Of a stretch of 64,000 nucleotides of DNA, positions 10,430-31,772 are shown piece after piece. The translations under genes were made by a program, and so were the position numbers. The notes under the pieces were generated by a model. The model was not told where the DNA came from, did no database searches, and worked only from the letters and a program-made list of their open reading frames with translations. This stretch comes from a bacterium (GTDB lineage Bacteria; J088; JAWLBW01), in contig JAWLHK010000006.1 of NCBI GenBank assembly GCA_041690355.1, forward strand, positions 186,001-250,000, read 5' to 3'. Each line of letters begins with the position of its first letter. Position 1 is the stretch's first letter.

Positions 10430-10494
10430 GCGCCGCGCACCCCCAATTCCGCCCGGAGGCGGCCCCCCGGAGCGCGCCCGGAGTCCGGTAGAAA

Positions 10495-10524
10495 AGAAAA
10501 GCCCCGCATCAGCGGGGCTTTTCT
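10495..10524. terminator. Bidirectional intrinsic terminator
   Basis: AGAAAA-GCCCCGC-atca-GCGGGGC-TTTTCT between convergent genes. Confidence 0.88.
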
Positions 10525-10544: not shown

Positions 10545-13178
10545 TTATTCGGCGCTCTCGGGCGTCTCGGCGGCCGGCATGGGGGCCGCGGGAGGTTCGG
10601 CCGGGGCCTGGGTCTCTGCCGGGGCCGGCAGTTCGTGCGCCGGCGCGGCCTTCTTTTCGCCCCCGGTTTCGGCGGCCGTCGCCTTGATGGCGGCGGCGGC
10701 ATCGCGGGCGATGCGCAGATGCAGGTGGTAGCCGGTCAGCGCCGCCGCCAGACGCTGGTTCGTCGCGTTGCGGCCGAAGGCCTTCCCCGATTCCTTGCGG
10801 GGAACGCGCACCTGAGCCATGCGCTTTTCTTCGTTGACCGCCACCATCTCTCCCTTGAGCCGGGCGGGGAGCAACGCGGTCGCGATGCGCTGCTCGGTCT
10901 TTTCGGCGGCGGGAACGATGTCGACCCGTTCGCCGAGGGCGTCCTGCAGTTTGCGCGCAATGGGAAACAGGTCGCGGCCGGGCGGCACGAGGATCTTGGT
11001 GCGGTGTCCCGGTTCGCGCACGATTTTCTGCATGAGGGGGAGCTTGATGCGGAAGTGCTCTGCGGCGCGCTCGATGAGGCGCTGCGTGAGCGAAAGCGCC
11101 ACCTCGTTGACCACGTCGAGCAGGGCGCTCCCTTCCTTCGAAAGTGCGAACAGGGCGTCCTGCAGCAGGGCCGTATCGGCGAGCCGGCTTTCGAACGGCT
11201 TGACGATGCCTTCGCGAATCGCCTGCTCTGCGCGCTCGCTCAGGGCCGCCTCGAAACGGTCGAGATGCTCGCCGAGCGCCTTCGCGACCGCTTCGCGATC
11301 GGGGGGCAGCGCCTCGAGATCGGGGGCGGCGACCGCTGCGGGGGCGAACGCGTGCGTCCACTCGCGCGGATCGGTCTCGGCGCTGAGCGCCTTGCGGAAC
11401 TTCGCGGTCGCTTCGCGGAACTCCTGGGGCACCGCGCTCATCAGCACCGGCTGGGGCAGGGGGCCTTCGCCGGGCTGGCGGCGCGTTTCGAGCTGGCGGG
11501 CCATCTCGGCCGCTTTCTCGCGCAGGGTGGCTTCGACAGCGCCGCGCACTTCCTCGAAGTAGGCGGCGGAATCAAAACCCTCGAACCGCTTCTTCCACGC
11601 CTCGGCGGCGTCGCTGTCGAGCGCGTGCTTGTTGGCCCAGGCTTCAACCTGGTTCCGATGCGCCGCCAGGGTCTTCTTCGCGAGCTCGCGCGCCGTACTG
11701 CGCGCCGACTTCGCCCAACGGGGGAAGTCGTTCTTCAGTTCGTCCTGACGCAGCTGCCAGCCGCGCGCTTCCTGCAACGACTGCAGATTCACGGTCAAGC
11801 CGAAATCGCGCAGCGGGAGAATACCCTCGACCATCGAATCGAGAAAACCCTGAACGCGCAGCATGCGGGCCCGCGACTGCAGGCGCAGGGCGAGCTGCTG
11901 CTCGACCTCGCGAAACCGGCTGATGTCACGCAGTCGGGCCGATCTCCCTTTGTGTTCCGGCCGCAGCGAGAGCGAAAAGGCAAGCAGATGCACATGGGGG
12001 CGCTGTTCTTCTTCTGCAAGGTCGCGCCGCCCGAAGAACTCGTCGGGATTGGTAAGGAACTTCTCAAAGGCGAATCCGTCGTGCAGATTCACGCGCACAT
12101 TCTCAATGGTGAGAATCGGACGGCCGATGTGCGTGGCCTCGCCTTCGCCCGAACGGACCTCGATGATGCCGTCGGTGGGCTCTGCGGCGGGCATCTCGAC
12201 GAAACGGATCCCGCGCCAGACGGTCGACCCGCGCCCCTGCTCGTCGAAGGCCGGCTCCTGACCGGCATCGCGGGCGAGGGCGTCGATGAGGGTCGTCTTG
12301 CCGGCGCCTTCGGCGCCCGCGACGCCAATCGTGAGCGGGGCTTCGCCGTCGGTCATGCGGGCGAGCGGGGCGTGGGCGAACTCCAGAAGCGCGCGGGCCT
12401 GGCCGAGCGTCGCTTCGGCAAGCGCCGGCGACATGCCCGGAACGGCCTGTACGGCGTTGCCGAACCGCTCGACCTCGTGCACGAGGGCCTGCAGCAGCGA
12501 CTGTGCAAACGTTGCTTCTTCGTGTCCGGTCTTCTCGGTGGCCGAGACGACCGCTTCAATGCGGGGCGCGGGGCGGGAGGCGGGGCGTCCGCGATCCTGC
12601 CCGCGTGCGCCCGGACCGGGACGGCCGCCGCCGCGGCGATCTGTGGGGCCGCGACGTCCTTCACCGTCGGGCCGGCCGCCGTACGGACGCCCTTCGGGTC
12701 GGCCTTCGCGGCGCCCTTCGGAGCGACCTTCACGACGCCCCTGACCTTCGGGCCGGCCCTCGCGGCGCTCGCCGCGGGGCGGGCGGTCATGGCGATCTCT
12801 GCGTTCACGCTCGGGGCGCGCATCGGCATAGCGCGGGTTTTCGGCGGGGGCTTCACGGCGGGCCGGGGGCGGCACGTTTTCGGGGCCCGGCGGCAATTTG
12901 CTCCGCTGCTCTTCGGAGAGGAACCTGGACAGCGCGCCGAACGCGGAGTGGCGCACCGGTCCCGGCTCCTTCTTCCGTTCGGGGCGTGGCGCGGCTTTCG
13001 GGGCGCGCTCCGGCTCGGGAGCAGCCTCCTGCGCCCGCGGAGCTTCTTCAGCCTGCGCATCCGCGCGGGCGGCAGTCTCCGGCGCGGATGCGGCGGCGGC
13101 TTCGGCGGGGGCTTCGGCGGGGGCCTGCGGCTCTGCCGGTTCGGTGGATTCAGGGGCTGAGTTCTCGTTGTCGGCCAT
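10545..13178 (-). CDS. 877-aa protein: disordered Ala/Pro- and Arg/Gly-rich N-terminus, degenerate P-loop GTPase-like domain, helical region, C-terminal NusA-like KH domains
   Basis: GAEGAGKTT Walker A; IVREPGHRTKILV, LGERVDIV and AFGRNATNQRLAAALTGYHL resemble NusA KH1-KH2; GGAG SD. Confidence 0.8.
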   Translation of the reverse strand: MADNENSAPESTEPAEPQAPAEAPAEAAAASAPETAARADAQAEEAPRAQEAAPEPERAPKAAPRPERKKEPGPVRHSAFGALSRFLSEEQRSKLPPGPENVPPPARREAPAENPRYADARPERERRDRHDRPPRGERREGRPEGQGRREGRSEGRREGRPEGRPYGGRPDGEGRRGPTDRRGGGRPGPGARGQDRGRPASRPAPRIEAVVSATEKTGHEEATFAQSLLQALVHEVERFGNAVQAVPGMSPALAEATLGQARALLEFAHAPLARMTDGEAPLTIGVAGAEGAGKTTLIDALARDAGQEPAFDEQGRGSTVWRGIRFVEMPAAEPTDGIIEVRSGEGEATHIGRPILTIENVRVNLHDGFAFEKFLTNPDEFFGRRDLAEEEQRPHVHLLAFSLSLRPEHKGRSARLRDISRFREVEQQLALRLQSRARMLRVQGFLDSMVEGILPLRDFGLTVNLQSLQEARGWQLRQDELKNDFPRWAKSARSTARELAKKTLAAHRNQVEAWANKHALDSDAAEAWKKRFEGFDSAAYFEEVRGAVEATLREKAAEMARQLETRRQPGEGPLPQPVLMSAVPQEFREATAKFRKALSAETDPREWTHAFAPAAVAAPDLEALPPDREAVAKALGEHLDRFEAALSERAEQAIREGIVKPFESRLADTALLQDALFALSKEGSALLDVVNEVALSLTQRLIERAAEHFRIKLPLMQKIVREPGHRTKILVPPGRDLFPIARKLQDALGERVDIVPAAEKTEQRIATALLPARLKGEMVAVNEEKRMAQVRVPRKESGKAFGRNATNQRLAAALTGYHLHLRIARDAAAAIKATAAETGGEKKAAPAHELPAPAETQAPAEPPAAPMPAAETPESAE

Positions 13179-13211
13179 GGTTACTCCCAACAAAGCGCGC
13201 GATAACAGATT

Positions 13212-13301: not shown

Positions 13302-13343
13302 AAAGTGCTAATTTTGGTGCAATTTTTCACTCGGAGCCCTGAC

Positions 13344-15491
13344 ATGGCAAGAGCGTCTCTTGGTATCCTCCTTGTGCTTTTCACCCTGGCCGCGGGCTGT
13401 ACCCGGCTCGAGGATGCTGCGGCTCTCGTGAAAGAAGCCGATGACGCGCTGACCGGCGGCGGCATCGAGGACGCGAAAGTACGCGAGCTTGCGGCGCAGA
13501 AATATGATCGCGCGATTCGCATCGTCTGCGGCGACACGGACTATTACTGCGTGAAGGGCAAGGATGCCGCCGTTGCGGGAGATGACGCGCATACGCTGTC
13601 GCATGCGCACTTCGGCCTGGCGTTCGCGCGCTCCTTCGATCTGATCGACCGTATCCGCCAGCTCTATGTCAGCGACACGCTCTTTCAGACCGAGATCCTC
13701 GCCGCCGGCGACGAGGCGGATGCAGACGATGGGGAGGCCCCGCAGACGACGACCGCCGATCGCTGCGAGCAGCAGCAGAACCTGCAGCAGCTCGTGCCGC
13801 TGCTGCGCACCATCGTGCGCACGAGTCTGCTGCCGATCATCGATTCGCTCAAGACGGTCACCCGGTTCAAGAATTTCTCGATCAGCTACGAGAAGGCGTT
13901 CCTCAACCTGAGCTTTCTCGACCCGTCGCTCGACAAGGCCGAGCAGGCCGACCTGACCCGGCGCGACATCGGGTTCTATTTCGGAGCCTCGGAGGAGGAC
14001 CCGGCCATCGGGGCCGGACTTATCGGGCTTCCCGAAGTGCACCTGATTCTCGGCGTGTTTCGCGTGCTGACGCTCGGCGCCGAAACCGTCTTCGCATACA
14101 ACGACCTCACGCAGGCCCTCATCGTCTTCGGCGGCAAGTTCGTACTTTCCGATCAGGCGAGCCCGTATGTCTGGGCGCGCGCCTTGAACTCCGACGAGTG
14201 CACCGACAACCCGCTTTTCGACCCGTCTTTCGGCGTGCTGTCGTCTACGGGGCGCGACAACTTTTCGCGGGTCAAGGAGCAGCTCGACCTGCTGCTCAGC
14301 GAGCAGGCCGAGGCCATGGCGCTGCTGGCCGCCCGCGGCGAGCCCGAAGCTTCGGCCGGCCTGCTGAACTATCGCGCCGGAGGTTCTGCCTGGGCCGACA
14401 ACCTTTTCCGCCGTATCATGACGGCCGATACGGCGGCGAGCTCGCTGTCGCGCGTCATGGGCGTCGTCAGTACGCTGGTCACGCCCGAGGATGTCGCCGA
14501 GCTGTTTACCGGCCTGGATGCGAGCCTGGGGGCGGGCACGCCTTTCGACGTCGCCACCTACCTTGACAGCAAGGCCGACCTCGCCCAGGAGCTGCGCTTC
14601 GTCGGCATCGAGCCGCTCGCGTTCGGGCTTCCGGCGGTCAACCTGTACCAGTTCTTCAACAATCCAATCGCCGACCTGAAGGGGGTTGCGCCGCTCACCT
14701 ACGCCGAATCGGAGCCCACCAGCCTCGATCAGAAGCCCGGCTACGAGAACGTGCTTTCGCAGGAGCGGCCGGCGGGAATCGAAAAGAAGTCGTTCTTCTG
14801 GCGCGACGTGAACGGCGACCGCCGACTGAACGTCCGCGGCGACTTCATCATCCAGCCCGAACGAGAAGCCTTCTACGATTCGGCAAACAACAATACGCCC
14901 TCGGGCACCGCCTCGAACCTCGGCATTCTCGGTACCTTCTGGGACGCCGACGCGAACGGCATCCCCGATGAGGTCGAAGGATATGCGCTCGGCGTGACGC
15001 CGGGTGTGAGCCGCGGCGCTTCGCCGTACGCAGTCACGGCGGCGGTCTTCGAGGTCGCCGGCGACGTCGTCGTCGAGCTGTTCGCGAATGCCGGCACGAC
15101 GGCGCCCGAAGCGGCGACCTATCGCAACCATTTCGTGCGGGACAATGCCGCCTCGACCGGCTGCCTCGTGAAGCCGGTGCTGAACGTCTTCAACAAGTAC
15201 GATTGCGATGTGCGCGTCGGCGACGTGCTCGGCCACGTGTGGCCCAACGTCTACCCCGAAGCCTACGCCGCTCCAGGGGTCAACGACACCCGCCGCCGCG
15301 ATCCGGCCAACGGCGCCGAAGATCGAATTTACTTCTTCTTCCCGAATCCGAGCTTCAACGGCGTGCTGCTGAAGGCACGGGGGGCGGGCTACGATTCGTT
15401 TGCCAATGAAGATCTGAATCGCTTTCTCAACAACGTGCTTGGACTCTCGGGCCCCGTCAACGACCTGATCATCACGGGGTCGAACCAGTAA
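13344..15491 (+). CDS. Hypothetical large lipoprotein (715 aa), first gene of the trpFBA transcription unit
   Basis: MARASLGILLVLFTLAAG-C lipobox; DxNxD/DxDxNG loops; TAA overlaps the trpF ATG (TAATG). Confidence 0.8.
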   Translation: MARASLGILLVLFTLAAGCTRLEDAAALVKEADDALTGGGIEDAKVRELAAQKYDRAIRIVCGDTDYYCVKGKDAAVAGDDAHTLSHAHFGLAFARSFDLIDRIRQLYVSDTLFQTEILAAGDEADADDGEAPQTTTADRCEQQQNLQQLVPLLRTIVRTSLLPIIDSLKTVTRFKNFSISYEKAFLNLSFLDPSLDKAEQADLTRRDIGFYFGASEEDPAIGAGLIGLPEVHLILGVFRVLTLGAETVFAYNDLTQALIVFGGKFVLSDQASPYVWARALNSDECTDNPLFDPSFGVLSSTGRDNFSRVKEQLDLLLSEQAEAMALLAARGEPEASAGLLNYRAGGSAWADNLFRRIMTADTAASSLSRVMGVVSTLVTPEDVAELFTGLDASLGAGTPFDVATYLDSKADLAQELRFVGIEPLAFGLPAVNLYQFFNNPIADLKGVAPLTYAESEPTSLDQKPGYENVLSQERPAGIEKKSFFWRDVNGDRRLNVRGDFIIQPEREAFYDSANNNTPSGTASNLGILGTFWDADANGIPDEVEGYALGVTPGVSRGASPYAVTAAVFEVAGDVVVELFANAGTTAPEAATYRNHFVRDNAASTGCLVKPVLNVFNKYDCDVRVGDVLGHVWPNVYPEAYAAPGVNDTRRRDPANGAEDRIYFFFPNPSFNGVLLKARGAGYDSFANEDLNRFLNNVLGLSGPVNDLIITGSNQ

Positions 15492-29057: not shown

Positions 29058-31772
29058 ATGCGTTTTCGCGCCGATGACGGCGGGGCGTTTCTACCGGAGC
29101 TTCCTCCCGCTCCGGCCCCCGGGGCAAGTACACTCGCCGAGTGGAAGGATTACGTGCGGACCGGCCTGGCCGCCGTGGCCGCGCTGCAGCGTTCGCGCCG
29201 CCGCGGCTGGCAGGTGGCCGAAGCGATGTCGGCCTTCTGCGATCACCTGATTCGCTCGCTGCTCGAGCACATCGAGGCCGAATACTTTCACAAGTACCCG
29301 CGGGTCGAGACCCGCCTTGCCTTCGTGGCGCAAGGGGGGTATGGCCGGCGCGAGATGAGTCCGCGCAGCGACATCGATCTGATCTTCGTCTATCCGACCC
29401 GCACGAACCAGTATGTGGAGTTCGTGTCGGAGCGCATGCTGTACACGCTCTGGGATCTCGGGTTCCAGGTCGGCCACGCCATCCGCAGCATCAAGGACTG
29501 CGTGCGGCTGGGGATGCAGGACTCGACTGTGCGCACGGCACTGCTCGACCACCGTTTCGTCGCCGGCGATCGGGCGACGTTCGACGAACTGCGCCAGGCT
29601 CTGCACGGCGAGCTGCTCTTCGACAACCCGAGCCGGTTCGTCCGCGACAAGCTGCAGGAGGCCCGCGAACGGCATGCGCGCTTCGGCAATTCGACCAACG
29701 TCGTCGAGCCGCATGTCAAAGAAGGCGAAGGGAGCCTGCGCGACCTGCACACGGCACTCTGGGTGGTAAAAGTCCGTTTTCGTGTCGACGATTTCTACGG
29801 CCTCTTTCAGAAGGGGTTGCTCGGCCGCTCAGACCTGCAGGCGCTGGAGCGTGCCTGGGATTTTCTGCTGCGCGTGCGCCACGAACTGCACCTGCGCACG
29901 AACAAGAAGCACGACATCATCAACTTCGAGCTCACGGCGCCGATCGCCGAGGCCCTCGGATTCAAGACGCGCGGGGGCACGCTGGCCGCCGAAGCGTTCA
30001 TGCAGCGCTACTACTACCATGCGCGCATGGTGCTCTATCTGACCCGGGGTGTGCTCGATCGCTCGGTCGAGATTACCGAGGGGCGGCTGCGCGGCGCCTT
30101 CGGCCGCCTCGGCATCCGCGAGCTGGGTCACGGTTTCCGCACCTATCGCAAGGAACTGATTCTCAGCGAAAAAGCGCTCGTCGACAATCCAGCGAACGTC
30201 ATGCGCGCGTTTCGTTACGCGCAGAAGTTCAAGGTGCCGTTCTCACGGTCCTCGTATGATCTGCTGCGCCGCTACGCCCGTAAGATTGACCGCGGCTTCC
30301 GGCGCAATTCCGAGGTGAACGACCTGTTTCTCGAAATTCTCGGCGATCCGTCGGGCTGCTCCGAGATCATGCTGCAGATGAACGAAACGCGCGTCCTGGG
30401 CCAGTACATGCCCGAGTTCGGGAAGCAGTTCTGCCGCATGCAGTATCAGCTCTATCATCGTTACACCGTCGACGTGCACTCGTGTTTCTGCATGCGCGAG
30501 CTCGAGCGCCTGCTGCAGAACGACCCCGACGTGCCGGAGTACTACCGGGGGGTCGCGGCGCGCATTCCCGACCGGGCGCTGCTCATGCTGTCGGCGCTGG
30601 TGCATGACGTGGGCAAGGGGCGGGGCGGCGACCACTCTGTCATCGGCGCGCGCCTGGTGCGCGGCATCGGCAAGCGCATGGGGTTGAGTGCGAAGCGCAT
30701 CGATCGCCTGAGCCTGCTCGTGCGTCATCACCTGACGATGAACGCCGTTGCCCAGCGGCGCGATCTGCAGGATCCGGCGACGATCAACGATTTCGCGCAG
30801 GATGTCGGCGATATCGAGAACGTCGATATGCTCTACCTGCTGTCCTATGCCGACACGCGCGCCGTCGGGCCCAATGTGTGGAACGACTGGAAGAGTTCGC
30901 TGCTGACCGAGCTCTATGAGCGCACGCGCTGGGTTCTGGAGACGGGGGATTACCGCGGCAAGTGGATTACCAAGGAAGTGCGCGAGCGCAAGGAGCGGCT
31001 GCGCGAACTCGCCGCCGGCGCGCTCGACGTCGACGCCTTGACCTCGGTGCTTCCCGACCGGTATTTCCTCAATAACGAGCCCGAGGCCGTTCTGCGTCAT
31101 CTCGAGCTCATGCCCCGGCTGCAGGGCAAGCCCTTCGTCATCGCGCATCGCGACGTGCAGCCGGGCGTGCACGAAGTCGTGTTCCTGGGATACGACCGCC
31201 CCGGGCTCTTCTCGGTGCTTTCGGGAACCTTCCGCGCCTGTGATCTGACGATTCTCGACGCCTCGATCAACACGCTGCGCGACGGACGCGTGCTCGACGT
31301 CTACCGCGTGGCCCCCTCGGCGTCGGATCAGGTTTCGGAGAGCCGCTGGGGGCGCGTGCACGACGTGCTCGAGGGCGCGTTGGCGGGTTCGACCGACCTC
31401 GAACAGCTCGTGCGCCAGAGCCGGCAGAGTCTGCTGGCCACGGCGGGCAAGCGCCAGCTGCGCGTGCGCAATCCGCGCGTTGAGATCAACAACGCGCTTT
31501 CGCCGCAGTACACGATTGTCGATGTCTTCGCCTACGATCGCATCGGTCTGCTCTACGACATTACCCGGGAGCTGACCGCGCTCGGACTGACCATTCATCT
31601 CGCCAAGGTCGCCACGGCTGCCGACATGATCGCCGACGTCTTTTACGTGAGTAAGGTCGGCGCCGGCAAGGTGACCGATGACGCGGAACTCGATCGGATA
31701 CGCGAGCGCGTGCTTGCCGTGCTGCAGGAGCCAGAAGACCCGGCGCCGTCGCCGCGCGACGATCAGCGGTAG
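29058..31772 (+). CDS. glnD: [Protein-PII] uridylyltransferase
   Basis: GGYGRREMSPRSDIDL, EPHVKEGEGSLRD, YHRYTVDVH, HDVGKG, two ACT domains (DRPGLF, DRIGLL). Confidence 0.96.
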   Translation: MRFRADDGGAFLPELPPAPAPGASTLAEWKDYVRTGLAAVAALQRSRRRGWQVAEAMSAFCDHLIRSLLEHIEAEYFHKYPRVETRLAFVAQGGYGRREMSPRSDIDLIFVYPTRTNQYVEFVSERMLYTLWDLGFQVGHAIRSIKDCVRLGMQDSTVRTALLDHRFVAGDRATFDELRQALHGELLFDNPSRFVRDKLQEARERHARFGNSTNVVEPHVKEGEGSLRDLHTALWVVKVRFRVDDFYGLFQKGLLGRSDLQALERAWDFLLRVRHELHLRTNKKHDIINFELTAPIAEALGFKTRGGTLAAEAFMQRYYYHARMVLYLTRGVLDRSVEITEGRLRGAFGRLGIRELGHGFRTYRKELILSEKALVDNPANVMRAFRYAQKFKVPFSRSSYDLLRRYARKIDRGFRRNSEVNDLFLEILGDPSGCSEIMLQMNETRVLGQYMPEFGKQFCRMQYQLYHRYTVDVHSCFCMRELERLLQNDPDVPEYYRGVAARIPDRALLMLSALVHDVGKGRGGDHSVIGARLVRGIGKRMGLSAKRIDRLSLLVRHHLTMNAVAQRRDLQDPATINDFAQDVGDIENVDMLYLLSYADTRAVGPNVWNDWKSSLLTELYERTRWVLETGDYRGKWITKEVRERKERLRELAAGALDVDALTSVLPDRYFLNNEPEAVLRHLELMPRLQGKPFVIAHRDVQPGVHEVVFLGYDRPGLFSVLSGTFRACDLTILDASINTLRDGRVLDVYRVAPSASDQVSESRWGRVHDVLEGALAGSTDLEQLVRQSRQSLLATAGKRQLRVRNPRVEINNALSPQYTIVDVFAYDRIGLLYDITRELTALGLTIHLAKVATAADMIADVFYVSKVGAGKVTDDAELDRIRERVLAVLQEPEDPAPSPRDDQR

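Follow-up and report, generated by a model that had tools for sequence, protein, structure and literature searches.

P0001, very probably a lineage-restricted derivative of the Eleos GTPase LeoBC, carries a NusA-type KH tail common to the LeoBC family

The DNA analyzed here is a stretch of 64,000 nucleotides from a bacterium (assembly GCA_041690355.1, contig JAWLHK010000006.1, positions 186,001 to 250,000), referred to below as the window. Our subject is a minus-strand gene within it, designated P0001, whose product a first-pass annotation had taken for an undescribed RNA-associated or dynamin-like pseudo-GTPase that captured a NusA module. P0001 is very probably a LeoBC derivative confined to one lineage; LeoBC is the dynamin-like, membrane-anchored GTPase that partners LeoA in the defence system Eleos. 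The NusA-type KH1-KH2 tail of P0001 is shared with most LeoBC proteins. In the accessible portions of two reports, LeoBC and LeoA are the two genes of the “Dynamins” system, subsequently called Eleos (10.1101/2022.05.11.491447, 10.1101/2022.12.12.520048). According to the available text of the first of these (Millman et al., 10.1101/2022.05.11.491447), LeoBC-LeoA of Bacillus vietnamensis NBRC 101237 protected B. subtilis against two jumbo phages, AR9 and PBS1, defence was lost when the P-loop of either protein was mutated, and the mechanism of defence was stated to be unknown. Earlier background concerns LeoA and a split LeoB/LeoC in enterotoxigenic Escherichia coli H10407 (PMC4159319, in the part available).

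The tail of P0001 resembles NusA and no other KH protein to a comparable degree. The NCBIfam model TIGR01953 (NusA) matches residues 717-822 with an E-value of 1.4e-14 and 53.8 bits, below the family cut-off of 253.4 bits. Only model positions 220-336 of 340, corresponding to the two KH domains, are covered, so that P0001 lacks the S1 domain and the N-terminal domain by which NusA binds RNA polymerase (RNAP). The motif span VREPGHRTK...LHLRIA occupies residues 720-824 (window 10707-11021), in agreement with the NusA KH1-KH2 segment placed at about 10710-11033 by the first-pass annotation. When P0001 was compared with Protein Data Bank (PDB) sequences using phmmer, 18 matched at E ≤ 1: 13 chains of bacterial NusA (E 1.9e-07 to 1.8e-05) and, at E 0.27-0.72, one archaeal NusA and two each of uridine kinases and IRG GTPases.

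Structure prediction gave the same result. Residues 210-840 were modelled with AlphaFold2 (AF2) from a 25-row alignment, with a mean predicted local distance difference test score (pLDDT) of 87.3 and a predicted template modelling score (pTM) of 0.78. Foldseek searches of the PDB with this model recovered NusA 1hh2 at a root-mean-square deviation (rmsd) of 2.8 over 121 columns and 32% identity, as well as the NusA-RNA complex 2atw/2asb at an rmsd of 3.8-3.9 over 143 columns. KH2 is predicted to have a complete type II fold (in model numbering, helices 552-559, 585-592 and 594-606 and strands 570-573, 578-583 and 609-614), and KH1 only a partial one. In the printed NusA alignments, P0001 has a gap of ∼11 residues exactly at the GxxG region of KH1. 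The loop of KH2 reads GRNG in five of the nine family members and GRNA in the other four, including P0001, so that both GxxG loops of this protein are altered, as had been proposed. A separate, canonical and full-length nusA is present at G000:C2:327738-328751 (417 bits, above the TIGR01953 cut-off), and the 894-residue GTPase frame downstream of it is, by position and size, presumably infB.

The remainder of the protein leads to LeoBC. A word-based protein search with P0001 returned seven relatives at 52-57% identity, and an exhaustive search returned 524 proteins at E ≤ 1e-3, nine at E ≤ 1e-10 and four at E ≤ 1e-30. Among the 150 matches listed, most are NusA-like and cover the KH region alone. 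A set of relatives of ∼700 residues (up to 1331) aligns with P0001 from residue ∼350 to ∼822. Of 19 such proteins scanned, 18 exceeded the cut-off of the GTPase family MMR_HSR1, the exception being a fragment of 506 residues, and all five distant relatives submitted to PADLOC (∼700-1331 residues) were matched by its LeoBC model (E 3.7e-91 to 1.3e-131, 305-439 bits). P0001 itself gives a partial match to PADLOC model PDLC03841 (LeoBC) at E 5.4e-07 and 27.1 bits, in which residues 412-564 correspond to model positions 265-425 of 601. It can be aligned with the LeoBC relatives over their full length, from G domain to tail, at 19-22% identity.

Foldseek also related the P0001 model to dynamin-like proteins (DLPs), namely IniA 6j73 (E 6.3e-07), LeoA 4aur (E 4.4e-05), BDLP 2j68/2j69, Cj-DLP 5oxf and mitofusin. 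The DLP feature of a G domain joined to a long helical neck and trunk bundle is present in both the model and these matches; the long helical region after the GTPase, which becomes the stalk of the model, had been noted at first pass, and a dynamin-like character had been proposed there as one of two options. A tree was calculated from 57 rows, including P0001, 5 close relatives, 38 LeoBC and 8 LeoA, under LG+G4 with support from the Shimodaira-Hasegawa-like approximate likelihood ratio test (SH-aLRT); every second KH-bearing LeoBC locus row was left out. The P0001 family forms a clade with an SH-aLRT of 100 and a stem of 1.68 substitutions per site, and the split that separates off the LeoA outgroup (support 100) places it with LeoBC. 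Descent of the family from a LeoBC-type ancestor is well supported.

To count tails and partners, genome contigs were scanned with a 14-row LeoBC alignment. This gave 233 confirmed relatives, of which the best 80, from many phyla, were kept (L013-L092); all counts of LeoBC loci refer to these 80. Open reading frames (ORFs) at each locus were searched with a hidden Markov model of the KH alignment columns and with the LeoA half of P0017, a LeoBC-LeoA fusion described below. A KH tail with the same KH1 deletion was found in 68 of the 80 loci. Those without a tail are three with cut ORFs (L013, L044 and L064), four with full-length cyanobacterial LeoBC (L036, L037, L050 and L054), and L025, L028, L049, L060 and L089. 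Since the tail-less cyanobacterial proteins are nested within KH-bearing clades of the tree, secondary loss is indicated. LeoA lies directly downstream in 69 of the 80 by the criterion of the script, and in 72 when L032, L042 and L091, in which a split LeoBC precedes LeoA, are included. Among the other eight, three are truncated by the end of the contig, in two the sequence stops no more than 160 bases from the ORF, and in one 685 bases remain; the short LeoBC ORFs of L025 and L049 have no LeoA in the following ∼6 kb.

One KH-bearing locus, L052, is from Rossellomorea vietnamensis NBRC 101237, which we take to be Bacillus vietnamensis NBRC 101237 under a newer genus name; we infer that this locus is the operon tested experimentally. 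Its LeoBC (L052:5971-8121, plus strand, 716 residues) matches TIGR01953 at residues 638-715 (E 8.6e-15), and its tail aligns with that of P0001 at E 1e-14. The predicted structure (pLDDT 79.8) has a tail of the same topology as P0001 and matches NusA structures, for example 1k0r at an rmsd of 2.6 over 120 columns and 32% identity. In an ESM Atlas cluster of a 724-residue “GTPase family protein”, Pfam annotation places MMR_HSR1 in 100% and PF26594 (KH_NusA_2nd, Pfam 38.1) in 55%; PF26594 is also the precomputed Pfam domain of the P0001 family.

The combination of GTPase, stalk and NusA-type KH domains is thus already in databases and in the defence protein of the tested strain, and, as far as these alignments and the tree allow, the KH tail is a normal, ancestral part of the LeoBC family. 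What had been said of P0001 as a dynamin-like protein with a degenerate G domain and a KH pair holds. Its description as an undescribed GTPase-NusA fusion fails because the architecture is the norm for LeoBC; the outcome that the first-pass annotation had named as refuting its proposal, an architecture belonging to a family already characterized, has thus largely come about. Likewise, the occurrence of the same tail and KH1 deletion in LeoBC generally means that the module was inherited by P0001 and not captured. We found no text discussing the NusA-like tail of LeoBC in the searched literature, noting that subscription papers and bioRxiv supplements were outside our reach and could describe it, and no paper in that literature joining DLPs with both NusA and KH domains, or bacterial dynamins with KH domains and defence.

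Several LeoBC relatives depart from the common form. P0017 (1331 residues) and its cluster member P0158 (1351 residues) are one-chain fusions of a KH-bearing LeoBC (∼11-730) with LeoA (∼732-1317), and such fusions provide independent support for the two proteins working together. P0011 (925 residues), P0043 (876) and P0087 (888) carry ankyrin-repeat arrays N-terminal to the GTPase domain. A planctomycete LeoBC of 1259 residues (L031:4375-8154, plus strand) has an N-terminal extension of ∼500 residues of unassigned nature and is followed by LeoA. The LeoBC tips from metagenome-assembled genomes of Methanolobus (L040) and Ignavibacterium (L034) are sisters with branches of 0.076 and 0.11, and such very short branches suggest recent transfer or a binning error.

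P0001 differs from its LeoBC relatives most clearly in the G domain. The P-loop (G1) GAEGAGKT is at residues 288-295 (window 12294-12317; 12291-12318 at first pass), the G3 equivalent EMPA at residues 328-331 (window 12186-12197), and the G4 equivalent NVRVNLHD at residues 360-367 (window 12078-12101). The pattern GxxxxGK[TS] of G1 is kept in all seven family sequences covering the site. At G3 the first residue is D in 14/14 LeoBC relatives (D-x-P-G) and E in 7/7 family members, and the fourth is G in 14/14 relatives and in 3/7 family members, giving a family consensus of E-x-P-(A/T/G). G4 reads N-x-K in 15/15 relatives and N-x-R in 8/8 family sequences. The degeneracy of both motifs, proposed from P0001 alone, is therefore genuine by comparison with the D and K of LeoBC. 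In addition, the family lacks ∼28 alignment columns between G3 and G4 and four more at the G2 region. The model of the L052 LeoBC has the order β3, α2, β4, α3, β5 (145-207), whereas that of P0001 has a single strand between β3 and β5 (115-151).

Of the complete set of GTP-binding motifs (G1, DxxG and an [NT]KxD-type G4), only G1 is intact in P0001, and Pfam and NCBIfam give only weak P-loop matches to the N-terminal half. In GTPases, Mg2+ and the γ-phosphate are contacted by the Asp and Gly of G3, base recognition falls to the Lys and Asp of G4, and the switch II helix links hydrolysis to movement. Given the changes in G3 and G4 and the loss of the switch II helix, P0001 is unlikely to act as a mechanoenzyme driven by GTP, and its specificity for the base is uncertain. 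The invariance of the P-loop suggests that nucleotide or phosphate is still bound.

The second difference is at the tip of the stalk. In five LeoBC relatives the maximum hydropathy over 19 residues, at the membrane hairpin (∼485-514), is 1.76-2.14, versus 0.99 in P0001, in which the 19-residue scan found no hydrophobic segment. The corresponding tip loop is invariant in 9/9 family members and has pLDDT values below 50 (AF2 model residues 358-366). Replacement of the hydrophobic paddle hairpin by this invariant RQPGEGPLPQPV loop leads to the prediction that P0001 is soluble. Third, the termini are extended. Residues 1-75 are rich in Ala, Glu and Pro, and residues 100-210 contain 28% R, 18% G, 16% P and 13% E; the Arg/Gly-rich region of the first-pass annotation is thus real. 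The N-terminal region (∼130-215 residues in the family) is unalignable but alike in composition across five full-length relatives, and C-tails rich in Ala, Pro and Glu are common to the family. Finally, the net charge of the 106-residue KH tail is +8 to +13 in 9/9 family members, compared with -3 to +10 in 16 LeoBC relatives. The KH tail and tip loop are nearly invariant across nine family sequences that are otherwise at 50-56% identity; on this comparison, the P0001 family is under selection.

The family is rare. Among 41 genomes (the source genome, G000, and 40 relatives), a full-length match was found only in G000 and in G001, which is of the same family but a different genus; all other matches were nusA-type KH regions only. 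In this sparsely sampled phylum the family profile was found in two of five genomes, both being f1 members, and in none of three f2 members (84-98% complete). The known family consists of the two genomes and eight metagenomic proteins. A metagenome contig scan for close relatives found none among 248 candidate stretches, and a second gave four loci with the KH region alone, which were taken as nusA genes.

In G001, the counterpart of the P0001 gene is likewise divergent from an orthologue (44% identity) of the 728-residue lipoprotein-like gene that also adjoins P0001 in the window. The ORFs past it match trpF, trpB and trpA of the window in size and order, and the contig stops on the downstream side. 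Downstream of P0001 itself there is no LeoA but a DAGK-like gene in convergent orientation. Whole-genome searches with LeoA, LeoBC and Dynamin_N profiles gave generic P-loop and G-domain matches only, and no partner was found with these queries. A weak match to the LeoA/LeoBC stalk at G000:C17:30658-31116 was dropped, as it belongs to a repeat-rich coiled-coil ORF of 275 residues. This ORF (L103:1147-1974, plus strand; G000:C17 ∼30304-31131) contains repeats of the LESRLGSDIEDLESRL type in tandem, and its C-terminus is hydrophobic.

Compared with LeoBC, P0001 has the same order of helical hairpin, G domain, stalk, tip, return helices and KH1-KH2 tail, including the deletion of α1 and GxxG in KH1. 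It differs by the D-to-E change at G3, the K-to-R change at G4, the lack of α2 and α3, a polar loop in place of the membrane hairpin, the absence of LeoA after it and a housekeeping syntenic context, as well as by an added disordered N-terminus of ∼215 residues, an Ala/Pro/Glu C-tail and a uniformly basic KH tail. The solved DLPs (IniA 6j73, LeoA 4aur, BDLP 2j68/2j69 and Cj-DLP1/2 5oxf) share with P0001 the G domain and helical neck and trunk (E 6e-07 to 5e-04 over ∼580-700 columns), at 10-15% identity, a global template modelling score of ∼0.13-0.21 and an rmsd above 20, the conformations being different. Unlike P0001, they have complete G domains and no KH tail.

The KH1-KH2 pair of NusA (1hh2, 2asb/2atw with RNA, 1k0r and 5lm9) shares the markers REPGxRTK, GERxD, ALxPA and GxxGxNxRLAxxLTG with P0001, at 27-32% identity and an rmsd of 2.8-3.9 over 121-143 columns. 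P0001 differs from NusA in lacking the N-terminal domain, S1 and acidic repeats, in a KH1 that is ∼11 residues shorter and without GxxG, in the GRNA of KH2, and in its location outside a nusA-infB operon. Era, a TRAFAC-class GTPase of ∼300 residues with a single C-terminal KH domain of the prokaryotic type (type II), also places a KH domain after a GTPase. Note that this is an analogy, not a shown homology of architecture: Era has no stalk and, unlike P0001, an active and complete G domain. The Era families gave weak G-domain matches to LeoBC relatives.

P0001 keeps the LeoBC body plan, including the Lys and Thr/Ser of the P-loop, and has been remodelled by reduction of the G domain, conversion of the paddle hairpin to the polar loop, loss of the LeoA partner, gain of a disordered N-terminus with a short motif and an Arg/Gly-rich tract, and a shift to a uniformly very basic KH tail. 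As a mechanism, we propose that nucleotide phosphate is probably still bound through the P-loop and that a dynamin-type GTP-driven mechanochemical cycle is unlikely. The protein may more plausibly be an elongated scaffold, with the basic surface of KH2 and the Arg/Gly-rich tract as binding sites for RNA or some other nucleic acid; the very basic tail and this tract suggest nucleic-acid binding, most simply of RNA. A housekeeping role would have been acquired after loss of the defence partner. Our confidence differs among these parts. An RNA scaffold as such, predicted from composition and homology, is tentative and somewhat doubtful, whereas LeoBC-derived identity and a nucleic-acid scaffold, taken together as one explanation, are reasonably probable.

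A number of observations weigh against this account. In P0001 and three other members of the family the GxxG of KH2 reads GRNA, and KH1 has no GxxG at all, which weakens the case for canonical KH-type RNA binding. Only 5 of 16 LeoBC relatives keep the GxxG of KH2, and in 7 of 16 it is deleted, so that the LeoBC tail, as judged from these loops, may ancestrally have bound protein and not RNA. The richness in Arg, Gly, Pro and Ala is partly expected at 70-74% GC. The P-loop, invariant in 7/7, argues for a persisting nucleotide-dependent activity, and the label “pseudo-GTPase” may be too strong. In the tree, the family and the two main LeoBC clades meet in a trichotomy, and the calculation carries a long-branch warning. 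The family could thus be nested in LeoBC or be its sister; parsimony favours loss of the hairpin and of LeoA as the direction of change, without proving it. Only one other genome shows the synteny, no conserved functional neighbour of P0001 was found, and its function is inferred from sequence and predicted structure.

A more specific form of the scaffold proposal, which we regard as rather unlikely, is that a defence LeoBC was domesticated in one lineage to give a soluble housekeeping protein that organizes RNA, possibly as a condensate scaffold, by means of the hyper-basic KH tail and an RGG-like arm; the LeoBC tail in Eleos would then recognize phage nucleic acid or transcription complexes. 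Alternatively, P0001 may still be an anti-phage protein, a single-gene variant of Eleos acting alone or with an unlinked partner, in which the KH tail or the disordered region senses a phage component. The nearest family that can be identified for it is a defence GTPase, its stem branch of 1.68 would fit arms-race divergence, and the invariant P-loop is the element whose integrity is needed for Eleos defence in the available text of 10.1101/2022.05.11.491447. Its gene, however, lies outside any defence island, among metabolic genes. Synteny on the upstream side extends over two genera, and the LeoA that follows LeoBC in 72 of 80 loci was detected neither here nor elsewhere in the genome. With the membrane hairpin and two G-domain helices also lost, this explanation is unlikely.

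Peripheral membrane remodelling, through an amphipathic-looking SAFGALSRFLSEEQRSKL motif or the tip loop, would be consistent with the overall retention of a dynamin-like fold, with hydrophobic residues spaced 3-4 apart in the conserved N-terminal motif, with an invariant loop at the paddle position of relatives and with the divergent lipoprotein-like gene syntenic in both genomes. We consider it very unlikely, as P0001 has no hydrophobic segment and its tip loop is rich in Pro, Gly and Glu and not hydrophobic. DLPs use the switch II helix for GTP-driven dimerization; the P0001 G domain is without this helix, and no partner DLP was found.

A NusA paralogue acting on RNAP, as a transcription elongation or termination factor, is highly improbable. 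The tail is closer to NusA than to other KH proteins, only NusA families appear in the TIGR01953, PDB and Foldseek results for it, and one relative is named “NusA-like protein/GTPase” by the Joint Genome Institute (JGI), but the score of 53.8 against a cut-off of 253.4 bits, the missing RNAP-binding and S1 domains, the absent RNA-binding loop of KH1 and the full nusA elsewhere in the genome all oppose it. Independent capture of a NusA KH module by an unrelated pseudo-GTPase in this lineage starts from a real similarity to NusA and is scarcely credible given the same tail and KH1 deletion in 68 of 80 LeoBC loci from many phyla, the alignment with LeoBC from G domain to tail, and the nesting of KH-less LeoBC in KH-bearing clades.

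The coordinates of P0001, its domains and its surroundings are collected in Table 1. A single long minus-strand ORF spans 10545..13193, and the ATG at 13178 gives 877 residues. The terminator-like hairpin and T-run lie 25-55 nt past the stop codon. On either side of the hairpin (10491-10522) the flanks are A-rich and T-rich; this, together with its position between convergent genes, suggests that it may terminate both. A convergent gene on one side, a divergent one on the other, and promoter-like and terminator-like sites of its own support the monocistronic layout assigned to P0001 at first pass. The lipoprotein-like gene is followed by trpF, trpB and trpA, and genes for HMG-CoA lyase and a carboxyltransferase lie past the DAGK-like gene. 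Since every homology found lies on the minus strand, an antisense ORF over nearly the whole of P0001 was rejected as a gene and attributed to the GC content of 65-74%.

Table 1. Window coordinates of P0001, its domains and adjacent features
Feature	Position	Strand	Basis
Coding sequence of P0001, LeoBC-derived dynamin-like protein with NusA-type KH tail, 877 residues plus stop	10545..13178	-	ORF list, family and structure matches
Low-complexity, presumably disordered N-terminus, residues 1-215	12534..13178	-	Composition
Conserved short motif HSAFGALSRFLSEEQRSKL in disordered region, residues 77-95	12894..12950	-	Family consensus SAFxxLxKxLxxExRxKL
N-terminal helical hairpin (neck), residues 211-276	12351..12548	-	AF2 model helices 2-35, 42-67, pLDDT ∼95
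Reduced G domain, residues ∼282-405, without helices α2 and α3	11964..12335	-	Alignment, AF2 models, motif table
Long helical stalk (trunk), residues ∼407-709	11052..11960	-	AF2 model helices 213-300, 328-354, 376-393, 419-499; Foldseek; PADLOC LeoBC
Tip loop RRQPGEGPLPQPV, residues 566-578, at LeoBC membrane-hairpin position	11445..11483	-	Alignment columns 670-760
KH1-like domain, residues 718-756, β-β-α-β, helix α1 and GxxG loop deleted	10911..11027	-	PDB alignments, AF2, Foldseek
KH2, residues 761-823, type II topology α-β-β-α-α-β, loop GRNA	10710..10898	-	TIGR01953, PDB alignments, AF2, Foldseek
C-terminal Ala/Pro/Glu-rich tail, residues 826-877	10548..10703	-	Composition
Shine-Dalgarno-like GGGAG, 5 nt 5' of ATG 13178	13184..13188	-	Read in sequence
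Promoter-like site TTGCCA, 17-nt spacer, AAAAAT, score 9/12	13322..13350	-	Consensus match only; 1 found versus 0.1 expected in shuffles
Intrinsic-terminator-like hairpin GCCCCGC/TGAT/GCGGGGC then TTTTCTTTTC, between two convergent genes	10491..10518	-	Read directly; unlisted by consensus scan
DAGK-like gene, convergent neighbour of P0001	9452-10429	+	Family scan
728-residue lipoprotein-like gene, divergent from P0001	13305-15491	+	Lipoprotein-type signal (…LAAGC…), no Pfam domain
Antisense ORF, 877 residues, over nearly whole P0001 gene	10527-13160	+	ORF list

P0001 is best described as an orphan, catalytically degenerate derivative of LeoBC that is predicted to be soluble, and what stays unusual is the derivative, not the architecture. 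It has shed partner, membrane anchor and part of the catalytic core and is nevertheless under strong selection, which makes it a candidate for the exaptation of an immune dynamin. For the LeoBC family more generally, the NusA-type KH1-KH2 tail carried by most members offers a testable handle on Eleos defence.

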